Positions 20,542-50,293 of a stretch of DNA of 64,000 nt are shown piece after piece (the stretch's first letter is position 1; each line of letters begins with the position of its first letter). Below the pieces are notes generated by a model. That model had not been told where the DNA came from. It did no database searches and saw nothing but the letters and a program-made list of their open reading frames with translations. Location of the stretch: the sequence record NC_050154.1; one strand, 5' to 3'. The position numbers were made by a program, and so were the translations under genes. The stretch is from Escherichia phage D6.

Positions 20542-21093
20542 TTAAAAAATGGTAGCCCCCGGAATAATGGCCCGGTTTGAGGACATTTTTTCCTCAATCT
20601 CCTGCACGCGGGCATATAGCGTGGCTTCATCGGGCAGATCGGAGTAGTCAAATTTCCCGTCGATGGATGCTCTACGCTGCCGGGCGACATTTCTTACGTT
20701 GATAAGCGCCTCCAGATATTCCTCCAGCATTCCAATGATTGCAGGAGGCACTTGCCATTCATCCAGCTTTCTGTCGCGTAGATTAACCAGATACAGCATT
20801 CGAAAAGGCCAGCGTTCTGAACCTGTTAGCTCTAATTCAATAAAGCCGGATAATTCATCCGAATAGACCAACAGGCCGTTGTTGTCGGTAACATGAACCA
20901 GAGAGAGATAATCTTCTGGCAACGGGATTGCAGTACCACCAGCTCTTTCAAGTTTTAACGTTTTCACTACCCCTGCCCTGTCCTGATACGTGGTCAGAGC
21001 TTTGATCAGGAATGCTTTCAACGTTTCTTCTTCACGCACAAGCAGCGGATTAAATCGCTCTTTAACGCTTTCTAATAATTCAATTGGTGTCAT
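20542..21093 (-). CDS. hypothetical virion structural protein
   Basis: 183-aa ORF, operon context. Confidence 0.5.
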   Translation of the reverse strand: MTPIELLESVKERFNPLLVREEETLKAFLIKALTTYQDRAGVVKTLKLERAGGTAIPLPEDYLSLVHVTDNNGLLVYSDELSGFIELELTGSERWPFRMLYLVNLRDRKLDEWQVPPAIIGMLEEYLEALINVRNVARQRRASIDGKFDYSDLPDEATLYARVQEIEEKMSSNRAIIPGATIF

Positions 21094-27044: not shown

Positions 27045-27067
27045 TTGGTTTTCTAACACAAATCATT
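27045..27067 (+). promoter_or_regulatory. candidate C1-type operator (TTTCTAACACAAA)
   Basis: Member of a recurring TGTGTTAGAAA family; directly upstream of the ATG at 27074. Confidence 0.5.
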
Positions 27068-27073
27068 AGAGTT

Positions 27074-27466
27074 ATGGCGTATCGAATCTTTGTTTCGTAT
27101 AAAAATGGCGCTAAGAGCCACTCTCTGAACACAACAAGTCGCTTTCTTGTTGAGGCGCAGTTGGCATCAATTCTTGCCGAAAGTGAGATACTCTCGCTCG
27201 CTGAACGGATCGTTATCCAGTTTTCTGGTAGAGATATACTCAATGCCCCCGCCCTCACTCCGGCCTCCGAAGTTATGGAATCAATTAAATGGCCTGTATG
27301 CGGATGTCCTGCCAGGGTTGAAGAGCCGGTAACAGCAACGCTCTACATGCCGAAAGCAGTAAGAGATTGGCTTGCTATGGTTGGTAATGGGAAAGTCAGT
27401 GCTGGACTTCGCAAGTTAATTGAAATGGCAGATATTCCTGAGTTAAAAAATGCATGGCGACAATGA
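27074..27466 (+). CDS. hypothetical protein, operator-controlled
   Basis: 130-aa ORF right after the operator-like motif. Confidence 0.55.
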   Translation: MAYRIFVSYKNGAKSHSLNTTSRFLVEAQLASILAESEILSLAERIVIQFSGRDILNAPALTPASEVMESIKWPVCGCPARVEEPVTATLYMPKAVRDWLAMVGNGKVSAGLRKLIEMADIPELKNAWRQ

Positions 27467-32765: not shown

Positions 32766-34427
32766 ATGAGTGAGGCAGAAGCCCGCCCGACTAACTTTAT
32801 TCGTCAGATCATCGATGAAGATCTGGCCAGTGGTAAGCACACCACAGTACATACCCGTTTCCCGCCGGAACCGAATGGCTATCTGCATATTGGTCATGCG
32901 AAATCTATCTGCCTGAACTTCGGGATCGCCCAGGACTATAAAGGCCAGTGCAACCTGCGTTTCGACGACACTAACCCGGTAAAAGAAGATATCGAGTACG
33001 TCGAGTCGATTAAAAACGACGTTGAATGGTTAGGTTTTCACTGGTCTGGCAACATCCGTTACTCCTCCGATTATTTTGACAAACTCCATGCCTATGCTGT
33101 TGAACTGATCAACAAAGGCCTGGCGTATGTTGACGAACTGACGCCGGAACAGATCCGCGAATACCGCGGCACCCTGACGCAGCCGGGTAAAAATAGCCCG
33201 TACCGCGATCGCAGCGTTGAAGAGAACCTGGCGCTGTTCGAAAAAATGCGTGCCGGTGGTTTTGAAGAAGGTAAAGCCTGCCTGCGTGCGAAAATCGATA
33301 TGGCTTCGCCGTTTATCGTGATGCGCGACCCGGTGCTGTACCGCATTAAGTTTGCTGAACACCACCAGACTGGCAACAAGTGGTGCATCTACCCGATGTA
33401 CGACTTCACCCACTGCATCAGCGATGCGCTGGAAGGTATTACGCACTCTCTGTGTACGCTTGAGTTCCAGGACAACCGTCGTCTGTATGACTGGGTACTG
33501 GACAACATCACCATTCCTGTTCACCCGCGCCAGTACGAATTCTCGCGCCTGAATCTGGAATACACTGTGATGTCCAAGCGTAAGCTGAACCTGCTGGTGA
33601 CCGACAAGCACGTTGAAGGCTGGGATGACCCGCGTATGCCGACCATTTCCGGTCTGCGTCGTCGTGGTTACACTGCTGCTTCTATTCGTGAGTTCTGCAA
33701 ACGCATCGGCGTGACCAAGCAGGACAACACCATTGAGATGGCGTCGTTGGAATCCTGCATCCGTGAAGATCTCAACGAAAATGCGCCGCGCGCAATGGCG
33801 GTTATCGATCCGGTGAAACTGGTTATCGAAAACTATCAGGGCGAAGGCGAAATGGTCACCATGCCGAACCATCCGAACAAACCGGAAATGGGGAGCCGTC
33901 AGGTGCCGTTTAGCGGTGAGATTTGGATTGATCGCGCCGATTTCCGCGAAGAAGCTAACAAGCAGTACAAACGTCTGGTGCTGGGTAAAGAAGTGCGTCT
34001 GCGTAATGCTTATGTGATTAAGGCAGAACGCGTCGAGAAAGATGCCGAAGGTAATATCACCACCATCTTCTGTACTTATGACGCCGATACCTTAAGCAAA
34101 GATCCGGCAGATGGTCGTAAAGTCAAAGGTGTTATTCACTGGGTGAGCGCGGCACATGCGCAGCCGGTTGAAATCCGTTTGTATGACCGTCTGTTCAGCG
34201 TGCCGAACCCAGGTGCTGCGGATGATTTCCTGTCGGTGATTAACCCGGAATCGCTGGTGATCAAACAGGGCTTTGCTGAACCGTCGCTGAAAGATGCGGT
34301 TGCGGGTAAAGCATTCCAGTTTGAGCGTGAAGGTTACTTCTGCCTCGACAGCCGCCATTCTACGGCGGAAAAACCGGTATTTAACCGCACCGTTGGGCTG
34401 CGTGATACCTGGGCGAAGTTAGGTTAA
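32766..34427 (+). CDS. glnS: glutaminyl-tRNA synthetase, host-like
   Basis: 553 aa with class I HIGH motif and VMSKR (KMSKS) motif; full-length match to E. coli GlnRS as I recall it; the upstream leader ends in TTTACGCTTTGAGGAATCCACA as in the E. coli glnS leader. Confidence 0.97.
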
Positions 34428-34451
34428 TAGGTATTTCGCCACATAAAAAAG

Positions 34452-34477
34452 TAAACGCCGCTACTGCGGCGTTTTTT
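34452..34477 (+). terminator. glnS intrinsic terminator, overlapping the last codons of the convergent methyltransferase gene
   Basis: AACGCCGCTACTGCGGCGTT followed by TTTTTAC. Confidence 0.8.
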
Positions 34478-35477
34478 ACTTCATTATTGCAATTATATCG
34501 TTAGCAACTACACGTGTTGACGCCTTGCAGGACACCGACCGTCTGGCTGCCATATGATGTACTTTAAACCCGTTTCCTTCATATAGTTCACGGATGTTTG
34601 GCGCACCACTATTTGTTATCACTACCTTAGCGCCGCGCTGGTGGGCTTCCACCAATAGAGATACCAGCCGTTTCTGTTCGTCGAAACGGAAGCTATTTCC
34701 TGAATAACTGGTAAACCCTTCTGTATCCGGCAGCGGTTCATACGGCGGATCGCAAAAAATCACATCGCCTTCACCAGCCGCCTCGATGACGCCAGCAAAG
34801 TCACCTGATACAAAGGACGTGTTTTTGAGTACGTCATCAGCCAAAAATGCCTCCATCTCTGCATGTGGGAAGTAGGGCGCTTTGTATTTGCCATACCCCA
34901 CGTTGAACTCGCCATTTTGGTTGTACCGCGTTACGCCATTAAAACAGTGCCGATTAAGGTACAAAAAGGCGGCAGCATGATGTAGCTGGTCATACTTTCC
35001 TCTGTTAAATGCCTCACGCACTTCGAGGTAAGCGTCAGCGTTGTTGTAATTTTGGAAAAAACTATATGACAGCGTGACGAGCGAATGTCCTTCTCGCTGC
35101 AATGTCTGATAGAAGTTAATCAGGTCACCGTTAATATCATTAAGCAGGTTGTGGCGAAATCCTGCATTCGTAAATACGGAACCGCCACCAACGAATGGTT
35201 CTATTAACCGCTTACCGTGTGGTAGATGCTCAAGCACTGTAGGCAATTCTGAGAATTTACCACCTACCCATTTGAATATCGGACGCTCATATTCATCCGG
35301 AGTCCGAATGGTGCGCATATAGCTAATTTCAGCCATCGTATCCTGTTTTTCTATGGCTATGCTTGCTATAGATTTACTCATAGAGCACCCCCTTATTCGC
35401 TTCGAAAACTGCCTTTGCGAATCCATGTGGAGTAGCACTTCGAAAATTAGCCCTGTCAGGCCCTGGTGGCGCGGCAT
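34476..35477 (-). CDS. Dam-family N6-adenine DNA methyltransferase domain protein (C-terminal half of a dmt-like locus)
   Basis: FKWVGGK AdoMet motif and DPPY catalytic motif. Confidence 0.85.
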   Translation of the reverse strand: MPRHQGLTGLIFEVLLHMDSQRQFSKRIRGCSMSKSIASIAIEKQDTMAEISYMRTIRTPDEYERPIFKWVGGKFSELPTVLEHLPHGKRLIEPFVGGGSVFTNAGFRHNLLNDINGDLINFYQTLQREGHSLVTLSYSFFQNYNNADAYLEVREAFNRGKYDQLHHAAAFLYLNRHCFNGVTRYNQNGEFNVGYGKYKAPYFPHAEMEAFLADDVLKNTSFVSGDFAGVIEAAGEGDVIFCDPPYEPLPDTEGFTSYSGNSFRFDEQKRLVSLLVEAHQRGAKVVITNSGAPNIRELYEGNGFKVHHMAARRSVSCKASTRVVANDIIAIMK

Positions 35478-36054
35478 GGATTCTGTTATCTGGCTTGCCT
35501 AATGATTCGTCCATTAGGGCATCAGGCATGACAAAGCCCTGGCCGCTCCAGAGGCATGTTTTTTTGGTGTAGTTATCTTCCTGACAATATGCAGTGAAGA
35601 AGTAAGGGTGAAAGATGTGATCTGGCTTACGCCAGAATGTCGATATTTTGCTGACCGGATTTTCAATCATGTACGGACAACCGATCATCTTTGCAATGTC
35701 ATAACACTGCCAGACAACCTGCATTGCTTTGAACTGGAAAACCGGATCTTTATTAGCCTTGTCCGAAAACCAGCGCGCGCCGGAAACAGCCAGGTCAGTA
35801 CACGGTGGGAACCCGGCCAGAAACACGATGCGCTGCAAATTCTTACGGAGAAAAGCGTATACTTCATCGCTATCGATGATCGCACTAATACGCGTCAGAA
35901 CGGCACCTGATTGCATCCGCTCGTCACTGGTCGATAAGTGCTGTGGATCGACGATAGCGGCATCGACACCGTATTCCAGCCAGGGGGCAACCATTGCCCC
36001 CGTAAAATCACAAAGACTCACAACAAGCGGTCGGTTATTATCGTTCTGCTTCAC
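35374..36054 (-). CDS. C5-cytosine methyltransferase-like domain ORF (N-terminal half of the dmt-like locus); overlaps the Dam ORF in another frame
   Basis: GFPPC (PC motif) and IENP (ENV-like) motifs; start moved to a GTG with GGAGG RBS because the track start would overlap hrdC by ~90 nt. Confidence 0.5.
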
Positions 36055-36943
36055 CGCCAATGGCCTCCACCAGCGCGTTAAACAGTGCAGATAATTCGCC
36101 CGTAAAGAGCACGAAATCAGCATCAAATCGTTGTGCTACATCCTCCCGGTCGATATCGTCGTTCTGGTCATAGAGATCATCACAGAATGTCAGGGCTTTG
36201 ATACTCATATCATCGTTGACTCTGAACGACGCGCGGTCCATCCAGTTAATTGCAACGGTCGTAGCTACTTTCCCCGCCTCAATGTGAGACATAATCTCGT
36301 CGGACTGTAGATCAACTTTGTTGCAGCGAACGGCACCACCATTATCGAGCAGACCCTTTAATGTGGCGTCTTCACCTGCTGTAAATCCGGCAGGGAAGCC
36401 GTTTTTAAACCACTCGGTCATTGTAATTTCCAGCGGTTCGCGTGGTGTGAATGGAATGACAGGCAGGCTGCCGAGCGATTTTCGCAATAAAGCCAGCTGG
36501 TCCTCTGCCTTTTTGGCGCTGCTTGCCTCAACGAATACCAGATGGTTTCTGCGGTCGATCAGGATTTTGGCGAGTGATTTTCTCGTGAAAGCACGAGGAA
36601 GAAGAGAGTGAAGCACTTCATCCTTCAGCGAATCTTTTTCGGTCTTCTTCAGCTTTCTGTCTTGCTCTTCTTCAAGTGTCAGGATTTTTTTCTGTAACTC
36701 TTCTTTGAGCACTTGAGAAGGTAGGATTTTTTCCTCTCGTTTATGCTGTATCAGAAGAAAACCCTGGTATTCATGGGTGAGGTTGTCACCAAGAACGGAG
36801 GTCCAACCAGCTTTAGCCATATCCTGAGAACCGCATGGGGTAAACACAAACTTGCTAAGGGCTGCATTTACTTCTGCAGTATCCCAGCTAACTTCGCGTG
36901 AAAGACGATAGATGAAGATATTTTTGAAAGCGACTGATCTCAT
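36038..36943 (-). CDS. hrdC: RdgC-family recombination-associated protein (P1 hrdC-like)
   Basis: Near-colinear with E. coli RdgC: [91 protein letters not shown]. Confidence 0.9.
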
Positions 36944-36950
36944 GTCTCAC

Positions 36951-36992
36951 CATTTGTGTTAGAAAATACATATTAATTATCTAACACAAATG
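36951..36992. promoter_or_regulatory. palindromic pair of candidate C1-type operators just upstream of hrdC
   Basis: CATTTGTGTTAGAAAATACATATTAATTATCTAACACAAATG. Confidence 0.55.
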
Positions 36993-37002
36993 GGTGCATT
37001 TT

Positions 37003-37656
37003 CTATCCTTTCTTGAAATCGAAGTTGCCAGCAGTGGCCTGAAAGGTTCCTCCTGCCTTGAAAGCTATGTCTCCGTTAGCGGTGACAGCTATATTTTCCC
37101 CATTAACATTGATGTTGTTGGCTGATTTGACGTTAACACTCCCTCCTGCATTCACGATTACATCAGCCGGACCAATGATATATATCTGCCCGGACTCATT
37201 CATGCCAATCCTTGCGCCTGCTGCCGTATTGGCAATTTCATAGCCGCCACCAGCAGTTCGTACTTCAAGAATATTGTTGCGGTGAATAACGAAGTCTTTC
37301 GTTGCTGAGATTTGGGGGCGGGGAGGTGCTCCATCTACTTCCGGCGGCGTCCAGCCGTTGCCTTTGCCAGATGCTTCTGGTGCAACGTTTGGAATTCCTC
37401 CCGGTGCATCCTGAGCGGCACCAACTATCATTGGGCGTCTGGTGTCTATTCGACCGTTAACATCTAAATAAGGAAACTCTACCCAGACCAGGTCACCTTT
37501 GACTGTGGGTACAAAAGCGTTTCCGATGGGTAACAGGTATTCCGCCCAGGGTAGATCGTCATCAGGAACGCCATTCCAGTCAGGTAAAACACGGACTTGA
37601 GCACGCATAAGCCCTGCCGGGTGCACAGTTCCAACAATTTGCGCTCTACGCTTCAT
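37003..37656 (-). CDS. hypothetical protein with beta-helix-like repeats
   Basis: 217 aa; C-terminal VNAGGSVNVKSANNINVNGENIAVTANGDIAFKAGG repeats. Confidence 0.5.
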   Translation of the reverse strand: MKRRAQIVGTVHPAGLMRAQVRVLPDWNGVPDDDLPWAEYLLPIGNAFVPTVKGDLVWVEFPYLDVNGRIDTRRPMIVGAAQDAPGGIPNVAPEASGKGNGWTPPEVDGAPPRPQISATKDFVIHRNNILEVRTAGGGYEIANTAAGARIGMNESGQIYIIGPADVIVNAGGSVNVKSANNINVNGENIAVTANGDIAFKAGGTFQATAGNFDFKKG

Positions 37657-48817: not shown

Positions 48818-48839
48818 AAATGTTAGAAAACTAATTTAT
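48818..48839. promoter_or_regulatory. candidate C1-type operator upstream of the immI-like unit
   Basis: AATGTTAGAAAACTAATTTAT, 17/19 identical to the motif at 62787; overlaps the ref-like stop. Confidence 0.5.
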
Positions 48840-49409
48840 CAATTCAATCGCCATCTGATACAACGTCATTTCATCGGCATTGTGCCGCATGAAATCTGCT
48901 TTTCCGCCTATTTTTCCGTCAGCATGAACAGGGACCAGCCAGGGATATTGTTCTCGGACCTCGGCTGGCGCTGCGTACTGGTGGTGCCATTTACACAAAG
49001 GGAGGACATATTTATGCGCGTTCTCTGCCGTTCTCCCGAAGATATGGTGCAGGGATACCACTGGGCTATGTTGCCCGTGAATATGGCAGGCAATGCAGGG
49101 GAGAGCACCGATAGCGGTCTGTATCCGGCGTTCATCGGCTGTGAGTGATCTGCCTTTCAGGCCGCGTGACGTGCGTGTTTTTTTGGACGGAGCGGATACA
49201 GCTTTATCTTTTCTCCGCTGTTCATATTGCTTTGCTTTTTCAATTTTCTTTTGCCGATATTCAGGCGATGCGGCTTTTTCTCTCGCTCGCTGCTGCTGGC
49301 GTTGAGCTTGTTGAAGGCACTTTGCCCTTTGTTCCTCTCGCCAGGCTGGGTCAGCCAATTTTTGCATGGCTTTTTGTCTCTGTTTCTCCCAATAGCTCTG
49401 TTTCTGCAT
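48831..49409 (-). CDS. HNH-type endonuclease with Lys/Arg/Gln-rich N-terminal extension (P1 Ref-like)
   Basis: 192 aa; CIACHIHGQHSPVVSLHHIFGRT...LPLCKWHH; operator-like motif ~60 bp upstream. Confidence 0.55.
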   Translation of the reverse strand: MQKQSYWEKQRQKAMQKLADPAWREEQRAKCLQQAQRQQQRAREKAASPEYRQKKIEKAKQYEQRRKDKAVSAPSKKTRTSRGLKGRSLTADERRIQTAIGALPCIACHIHGQHSPVVSLHHIFGRTAENAHKYVLPLCKWHHQYAAPAEVREQYPWLVPVHADGKIGGKADFMRHNADEMTLYQMAIELIN

Positions 49410-49472: not shown

Positions 49473-49493
49473 ATTGATTTTCTAACACAAAAC
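49473..49493. promoter_or_regulatory. candidate C1-type operator in a divergent promoter region
   Basis: ATTGATTTTCTAACACAAAAC. Confidence 0.55.
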
Positions 49494-49681
49494 ATTAATA
49501 TCATTCCTGATAACTGTTTGGAGGACATGATGCTTATAGCTTTAAGTGCGATCCACCAGCCATCTGTGAATGAGATTGGCCTGTTCTATGTGTTGTTTTT
49601 CGGGGCGTTGGCGCTACTTGAGCTTGGTATTGAGCTTTTCGCAGTGCTTATGTTTTGCGTCACGATTTTGGGGAAATTTTG

Positions 49682-50293
49682 ATGGTGAAACGTGTTTTGA
49701 AAATTTACATCGCGGGGCCGATGACTGGTTATCCAGATTACAACCGTGCTGCGTTTAATGCGAAAGCGAGCGAGCTGATGGCTGAAGGGCATATCGTTCT
49801 GAATCCAGCTGTGTTACCTGGTGGCCTTTGTCAGAGTGAATACATGGATATTTGCCTGGCAATGGTGCGTTCTGCTGATGCGATCTACTTGCTCAATCGA
49901 TGGGAGGAATCGATTGGTGCTCGTGCAGAGCACGCGCTGGCTGAAAAGCTGGGGCTGACTGTAATTTATGAGTCACCAACCAACATTGAATGCCAGGTTG
50001 CTCCGCATATTTACCGGGAACTGGTCAATGCACTGTGTGATATCGCTGCTGTATATCACGGCACAGAACAGCTTCGTGAGCGTTTAGCCCATACCATTTC
50101 CTATTACCTGTCTTTATCTCATGAGCACAAGCTCCGCCAGAAGGTAATGATCAAATTTATCATGAGGTTATCGAAATCCCTGGCAAACGCCGATCCAAAG
50201 AATCCATTACCGAAAGAGGCAATGAATTACCTGAAGTCCTGCAACGTTGTTTCTGAAGATGGCGTGCTTTTGGTTAGAAGGAGTTCTGCGTGA
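49682..50293 (+). CDS. DUF4406-like protein with C-terminal extension
   Basis: KIYIAGPMTGYPDYNRAAF N-terminus; C-terminal HIYRELVNALCD...GTEQLRERL module also present in the 56427 ORF. Confidence 0.6.
   Translation: MVKRVLKIYIAGPMTGYPDYNRAAFNAKASELMAEGHIVLNPAVLPGGLCQSEYMDICLAMVRSADAIYLLNRWEESIGARAEHALAEKLGLTVIYESPTNIECQVAPHIYRELVNALCDIAAVYHGTEQLRERLAHTISYYLSLSHEHKLRQKVMIKFIMRLSKSLANADPKNPLPKEAMNYLKSCNVVSEDGVLLVRRSSA

Follow-up and report, generated by a model that had tools for sequence, protein, structure and literature searches.

Does the methyltransferase locus of the D6-like plasmid prophages represent a P1-type bifunctional methyltransferase gene split by a frameshift, or an operon of independent genes? 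We addressed this question for a stretch of 64,000 nucleotides (nt) from Escherichia phage D6 (sequence record NC_050154.1), hereafter the window, in which an earlier note had described a dmt-like locus where an open reading frame (ORF) with C5-cytosine methyltransferase-like motifs precedes a Dam-type N6-adenine methyltransferase ORF. The element is a D6-like plasmid prophage of E. coli and Salmonella and a distant relative of P1. The analysis points to an operon: with a probability of roughly 0.75, the locus is a DNA-methylation module with translational coupling and operator control that consists of three separate, co-transcribed genes, rather than a broken or recoded fusion. These genes, all on the minus strand, are (i) rdgC/hrdC, (ii) a gene for a C5-methyltransferase-like protein of 226 amino acids (aa), and (iii) dam (Table 1). 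The gene structure, homologies, fold, and conservation of the module and the recurrence of its operator motif were observed directly; co-transcription, coupling, binding of a repressor, the activities of both enzymes, and their biological role are inferred.

Boundaries of the methyltransferase genes

The two methyltransferase ORFs lie in different frames of the minus strand, as the earlier note had stated, and the end coordinate that it gave for the locus, 36054, correctly marks the GTG with which the upstream gene begins, giving an overlap of 17 nt with the end of rdgC. The overlap of about 100 nt (35374..35477) that it reported between the two ORFs arose because the longest ORFs were taken, 36126-35374 (250 aa) and 35477-34476 (333 aa), the second of which begins at an in-frame ATG at 35477. 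A further ATG at 35381 is preceded by the Shine-Dalgarno sequence AAGGGGG 6 nt upstream; the junction at this point reads AAGGGGGTGCTCT-ATG-AGTAA, and the ATG overlaps the TAA of the upstream gene, whose stop is at 35374-35376, by 8 nt (ATGAGTAA). The GenBank record CP055626 has both the dam start at 35381 and the GTG start at 36054.

These boundaries were compared in 23 D6-like IMG/VR loci, in which the upstream protein is 64-100% identical to that of the window. The two genes are separate in all 23, and every one of the 22 loci with an upstream protein of 226 aa places an ATG or GTG start for dam at the 8-nt overlap, preceded by AAGGGGG or AAGGAGG. In contrast to this start, the ATG at 35477 has no counterpart in 6 close relatives. 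The dam frame upstream of the conserved start is open for 39 codons in the window versus 0-3 codons in three relatives (L006, L008, and L027), in the last of which a stop directly before the conserved start closes it. Two more distant contigs (85 and 88 kb; 64% and 75% identity) have three separate genes for RdgC, a protein of the 226-aa type, and a D12 methylase, which overlap by 19 nt and 4 nt; here, too, no more than 0-3 codons of the dam frame are open upstream. Judged by this pattern, the conserved dam start is 35381 and the overlap measures 8 nt, not ~100. Both proteins recur with identical sequence, on at least 1000 and on 982 contigs; therefore, an assembly indel, for which the earlier note proposed to inspect reads near 35374..35477, is ruled out.

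The two-gene reading is already known, both from GenBank and from the published annotation of the plasmid pYU39_89. The table of its genes lists a 681-nt "putative DNA-cytosine methylase" and a 906-nt "dam_2" that overlap by 8 nt, in the gene order rdgC_2, "putative DNA-cytosine methylase", dam_2, and glnS_2 (PMC6799933, S1 Table).

Dam and the small C5-type protein

The assignment of the downstream ORF to Dam-type N6-adenine methyltransferases is borne out by its matches to PF02086 (E 2.5e-56; 191.7 bits, cut-off 22) and TIGR00571 (E 4.9e-74; 249.4 bits, cut-off 114.85). Its score against the E. coli Dam equivalog NF008152 is 240.6, under the cut-off of 441, and on these profile scores it is a D12 family member and not the host Dam equivalog. 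The protein contains the motifs FCDPPYEP (the DPPY motif) and EPFVGGGS (an FxGxG-type S-adenosylmethionine loop), which align with those of P1 Dmt, and is 69% identical to Dmt residues 478-753 over 278 residues; statements on P1 here and below follow its annotated GenBank record, apart from those given as background. From the 69% identity to the P1 Dam domain, the enzyme should methylate GATC. As the earlier note had claimed, no restriction endonuclease partner was found: the neighbors are rdgC, baseplate and tail genes, glnS, and parA, and the best PADLOC match of Dam is an "orphan methyltransferase", with no PADLOC match for RdgC. GATC occurs 214 times in the window (247 expected), with a maximum of 4 sites per 200 bp, and no P1-like pac cluster of GATC hexamers is present in the window. 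A link between Dam and a visible pac site was considered and dropped, because there is no hexamer cluster and GATC is not enriched.

The 226-aa product of the upstream gene had no match in Pfam, NCBIfam, or PADLOC, including none to PF00145 at E<=0.1, and sequence searches of PDB with the protein and with its family profile returned chance matches alone (BH2621 and ornithine decarboxylase) and no methyltransferase. It is matched end to end by phrog_757 ("DNA methyltransferase", E 4.3e-78). Its homologs form more than 7,900 clusters at 90% identity and 2,610 at 50%. By tblastn, 1,589 phage records match, including T1-like phages, Dhillonvirus, Webervirus, Jilinvirus, rV5-like phages, and Arthrobacter phages; the matches are often annotated as (cytosine) methyltransferases, and the best protein match in the phage collection is 58% identical.

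The closest solved folds are those of C5 methyltransferases (the PF00145 group) and of the carboxymethyltransferase CmoX (8yf3). The FPPC motif, with C85, directly follows strand 4 (residues 76-81), in a flexible loop of low confidence, and the ENP motif, with E131, lies at the end of strand 5 (128-132). Both residues are invariant across 68 family members with 33-50% identity to the 226-aa protein, as is D36, the motif II acid after strand 2. PF00145 is the only Pfam family that recurs among these members (7 of 68, all below threshold; best E 0.0039). Several features weigh against simple membership in PF00145: (i) motif I, in the loop after strand 1, is of the form CDxTGxM (LCDFTGAM here; family consensus SLxDxTGxM) with one conserved glycine, (ii) in length, the protein falls about 100 residues short of bacterial C5 methylases, and (iii) the stretch corresponding to the recognition domain comprises only some 50 residues (roughly 150-205) and is strongly conserved (PDxRIH), not variable. 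The protein has the C5-pyrimidine methyltransferase fold and catalytic pair, and we do not file it as a demonstrated PF00145 member. The description of the upstream ORF as C5-like in the earlier note holds for its motifs and fold; no curated profile reaches threshold.

Two family members carry additional domains. In one homolog of 548 aa (P0220), a Hint/LAGLIDADG intein is inserted exactly at the FPPC cysteine (FGFPP/C...HN/CTNLSVSGARWF); inteins typically lie at such catalytic residues. Another, of 348 aa (P0175), ends in a fused HNH endonuclease domain at the C terminus (PF13391, E 5.9e-8).

From its fold and catalytic pair, the enzyme most probably modifies cytosine at C5, the transferred group presumably being methyl. 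The alternative is that it is not a plain sequence-specific 5-methylcytosine methyltransferase, and that this minimal C5-fold family (~215-230 aa) transfers another group in the manner of CmoX, acts on RNA or nearly without specificity, or serves as a subunit targeted by a partner. No biochemical report on the small C5-like family, including one on 5-methylcytosine formation, was found in the literature searched. We consider such an activity unlikely: the cysteine and glutamate pair is what C5 methylation requires, many phage annotators have already assigned a cytosine methylase, and a survey of genomic neighborhoods shows that a partner is not generally needed. In 57 non-D6 phage loci (49-62% identity), no Dam homolog occurs within 3 kb. 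The 111 immediate neighbors in these loci are mostly genes of replication and nin regions (SSB, NinB, NinX, DnaB, VapE, and ParB-HTH); methyltransferases account for about 3 of them, and the 25 most frequent Pfam families listed include no recurring restriction-enzyme family. The small gene thus usually occurs as a module by itself, and its combination with Dam characterizes the D6-like lineage. A general pairing of the small family with Dam or with a restriction enzyme was also considered, and is rejected by the same survey. In some other phages the small gene does lie beside other methylases.

A natural fusion of the two domains was observed on three contigs (P0121, P0271, and P0272): a protein of 563 aa with a small C5-like domain at the N terminus and a D12 Dam domain at the C terminus. 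This fusion fits a shared role of the two enzymes in DNA modification; it does not show that they cooperate physically.

The upstream palindrome and the genomic setting of the unit

The operator-like palindrome that the earlier note had placed just upstream of the hrdC unit was confirmed as a perfect 14-bp inverted repeat in the 59-bp gap between a baseplate gene and rdgC, while its label as an operator is unproven. It is built from a 15-nt half-site, TTTGTGTTAGAWAAT, present in inverted orientation at 36953-36967 (+) and 36976-36990 (-). The window contains 4 copies of this half-site versus 0.82 expected, and 5 matches were seen in 0 of 100 shuffles. The two remaining copies are single: one precedes a gene at 48831-49409 (-) for a Ref-like endonuclease (phrog_2321, E 1.8e-83), and the other, with one mismatch, lies in the divergent intergenic region between a capsid gene and the gene at 27074-27466. 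In the rest of the plasmid, the perfect half-site is found upstream of icd-like and Rha/ant-like genes, along with a further copy with 2 mismatches, all in intergenic regions.

A sigma-70-like promoter candidate overlaps the palindrome, with its -10 hexamer within one operator half-site. The promoter scan gave no more sites than in shuffled sequence, so the candidate is weak alone and is proposed from its position. A tblastn search with the P1 repressor C1 found nothing in the window. Outside the window, a 345-aa ORF adjoining pacB (NZ_CP122910, 1-1038) is 21% identical to P1 C1 residues 8-242 (pairwise E 1.2e-6), and c1 has the equivalent position in P1, next to pacB. The D6 half-site shares, by inspection, 9 of 14 positions with ATTGCTCTAATAAATTT, which we take to be the consensus of P1 C1. 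In P1, ref and the immI region are also under C1 control. A putative divalent operator of a C1-like repressor that overlaps the candidate promoter is a reasonable, if unproven, interpretation of the palindrome, and the half-site copies together with the distant C1 homolog resemble a counterpart of the P1 C1 regulon that is specific to D6.

Alternatively, the palindrome could act as an RNA hairpin that controls translation or processing or limits read-through from the baseplate operon. The repeat is predicted to fold into a hairpin of -21.5 kcal/mol (z -5.1) with a stem of at least 14 bp that abuts the ribosome-binding site GGTGAG, and the weakness of the promoter match is in keeping with such a function. 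A hairpin does not explain why the half-site stands single, and non-palindromic, at three or four other intergenic sites of the plasmid, and in P1 a C1 operator occupies the equivalent site. A hairpin in place of a repressor operator therefore appears quite unlikely; the two roles are not mutually exclusive.

With the palindrome read as an operator, the unit may work as follows. In the lysogen, the distant C1-like repressor bound to the paired operator would block the promoter and keep the unit off. Upon induction, a single transcript would run from rdgC through the small C5-type gene to dam and end at the terminator shared with glnS, as the spacing, the overlaps, and the terminator suggest. 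The overlaps of 17 nt and 8 nt, each with its own Shine-Dalgarno sequence, would allow ribosomes to re-initiate, so that translation of the genes is coupled. Dam would then methylate GATC, and the small enzyme would modify C5 of cytosine via Cys85 and Glu131. By analogy with what is generally known of orphan phage methylases, the modified replicating phage or plasmid DNA would be protected from host restriction.

The 1.8-kb locus is 100% identical to that of the E. coli plasmid NZ_CP122910 and 99.4-99.9% identical in the other 19 plasmids listed, which come from E. coli and Salmonella hosts and measure ~75-94 kb, with one of 216 kb. Of 120 records matching the locus, 118 are predicted to be non-mobilizable. 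The exact 226-aa and 301-aa proteins bear the source name "DNA methyltransferase [Escherichia phage D6]" in the protein collection. Identity across the locus is 99.9% in pYU39_89 (CP011430), which has been described as a D6-like plasmid prophage (PMC6799933). The annotated neighborhood contains capsid, tail, and baseplate genes, a maturation-control protein, parA, a recombinase, and higBA. Megablast of the locus (34400-36200) against 50,697 phage records gave no nucleotide match, the D6 record evidently being absent from this collection, and a 20-kb flank had only patchy matches to P1-like phages.

The bidirectional terminator behind dam has a 9-bp stem with 6 G-C pairs, flanked by T runs on both sides. 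The convergent gene, glnS (32766-34427, +), is a full-length glutaminyl-tRNA synthetase gene about 97% identical to the E. coli chromosomal copy; among 5,426 complete E. coli genomes, glnS matches at 81 plasmid places. Its role as cargo or as a possible maintenance gene of D6-like elements has been discussed previously (PMC6799933). Divergent from the Ref-like gene is an ORF of 212 aa (49655-50293, +) that matches phrog_5781 and, more weakly, nucleoside 2-deoxyribosyltransferase and MazG-like proteins; it may be a nucleotide-metabolism gene beside an operator copy. In NZ_CP122910, half-site copies are located at 21040 and 4402, one of them near pacA. The region 1-28000 of this plasmid, outside the window, encodes according to its RefSeq annotation a Thoeris anti-defense protein of the Tad2 family, a 2,278-aa SNF2-related protein, a tRNA cluster, and a TerB-like protein.

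Table 1. Features of the methylation unit and copies of the operator half-site in the window.
Feature	Position	Strand	Basis
rdgC/hrdC homolog, 301 aa, first gene of the unit	36038..36943	-	PF04381 RdgC, E 4.7e-103
226-aa C5-methyltransferase-like gene	35374..36054	-	GTG start, GGAGG 9 nt upstream, FPPC/ENP motifs
dam, 301-aa D12-class N6-adenine DNA methyltransferase	34476..35381	-	PF02086, TIGR00571
Bidirectional intrinsic terminator, common to dam and convergent glnS	34453..34474	both	terminator scan
Perfect 14-bp inverted repeat, CCATTTGTGTTAGA-N16-TCTAACACAAATGG	36950-36963 / 36980-36993		sequence
Sigma-70-like promoter candidate: -35 TAGAAA 37005-37000, 18-nt spacer, -10 GATAAT 36981-36976	36976..37005	-	9/12 consensus
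Single half-site copy (TTTGTGTTAGAAAAT) upstream of the Ref-like endonuclease gene	49477..49491	-	
Single half-site copy, one mismatch, divergent intergenic region	27048..27062	-	

For the annotation of the locus, the gain is small: GenBank and the pYU39_89 paper had the two-gene reading before, and the locus is neither broken nor recoded. The useful outcomes are negative ones, namely that the 100-nt overlap is a product of ORF calling and that only the Dam half is homologous to P1 Dmt. The remaining interest lies in the biochemistry of a very widespread family of small C5-type phage proteins that is without a curated profile. The product and specificity of this enzyme would shed light on the DNA marking used by many temperate phages and phage-plasmids, and, if its targeting were borrowed from a partner such as Dam, a natural setting for this would be found in the D6-like operon and in the rare fusions.

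Comparison with P1 dmt and other known systems

The D6-like unit has the same order as its P1 counterpart: a homolog of RdgC is followed by a cytosine-type module and then by a Dam module, and P1 HrdC is 52% identical to D6 RdgC over 300 aa. The P1 unit, uhr-hrdC-dmt, has the C1 operator Odmt (Op68) upstream; the D6 unit lacks uhr, and its putative operator differs in sequence from Odmt and is arranged as an inverted pair. In P1, Dmt is a single polypeptide of 754 aa with a canonical PF00145 domain of ~470 aa, and its record ascribes to it methylation of GATC and "perhaps" of cytosine at C5, whereas in D6 there are two genes and the cytosine-type module has 226 aa. Alignment of both ORFs to Dmt, as proposed in the earlier note, placed Dam on the C-terminal part of Dmt and gave no similarity between the 226-aa protein and residues 1-477 (BLASTP E 2.9; hhalign probability 0.2%). 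Therefore, there is no evidence that the D6 locus is a split P1-type dmt. The term dmt-like is justified by the Dam half, the position after hrdC, and the putative upstream operator, and not by the cytosine half, which has no detectable homology.

A P1-type fused dmt broken by a frameshift, whether as a pseudogene or through a sequencing error and with one or both halves inactive, would account for the 754-aa protein that occupies the equivalent position behind hrdC in P1, with a C5 domain followed by a Dam domain, and for the 39 open codons upstream of the dam ATG in the window. This explanation is already largely refuted, and we consider it very improbable: besides the lack of similarity to Dmt 1-477, the 226-aa protein ends where more than 2,600 stand-alone family clusters end and is full length, each of the two proteins recurs unchanged on about 1,000 contigs, relatives at 64-84% identity keep the arrangement with junction sequences of their own, and the dam frame is closed upstream in relatives. 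Just as improbable is programmed ribosomal frameshifting in the overlap to yield a C5-like-Dam fusion beside the separate proteins, for which the natural in-frame fusion of 563 aa and the ~100 nt with both frames open in the window could be cited, as that stretch is not conserved (L027, L006, and L008 lack the open frame, and 6 loci have no upstream ATG), no slippery site or stimulatory structure is evident in the 8-nt junction (no dedicated search for either was made), and the conserved Shine-Dalgarno sequence and start codon account for Dam expression. The frameshifted, inactivated or recoded bifunctional methyltransferase envisaged in the earlier note is thereby rejected. Its other proposal, two translationally coupled enzymes, is accepted and agrees with the short overlaps and Shine-Dalgarno sequences kept across diverged relatives, from which coupling is predicted.

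Among other known systems, pYU39_89 has genes of the same lengths with the same overlap, and nothing material distinguishes it from the D6 locus. The 563-aa fusion shares the architecture of P1 Dmt but uses the D6-type module. The phrog_757 family has the FPPC, ENP, YTKxTCLW, and RSxTPxGFA motifs in common with the 226-aa protein; elsewhere its members are usually alone among replication and nin genes with no Dam nearby, so that, save for the rare fusions, pairing with Dam is specific to the D6-like elements. The canonical C5 enzymes (M.HhaI, M.HaeIII, Dcm, the DNMT3 catalytic domain, and the CP-933R enzyme 3g7u) and the phage carboxymethyltransferase CmoX have a class-I fold like that of the 226-aa protein, with a cysteine-bearing loop after strand 4 and a glutamate after strand 5. 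Unlike the canonical C5 enzymes, the 226-aa protein has no large target-recognition domain, its motif I is atypical, and its profile matches remain below threshold. In the two-subunit C5 methyltransferases M.AquI and M.EcoHK31I, the function is spread over two adjacent or overlapping genes. There, the two genes encode halves of one C5 enzyme, whereas in D6 the second gene encodes a complete, independent Dam.

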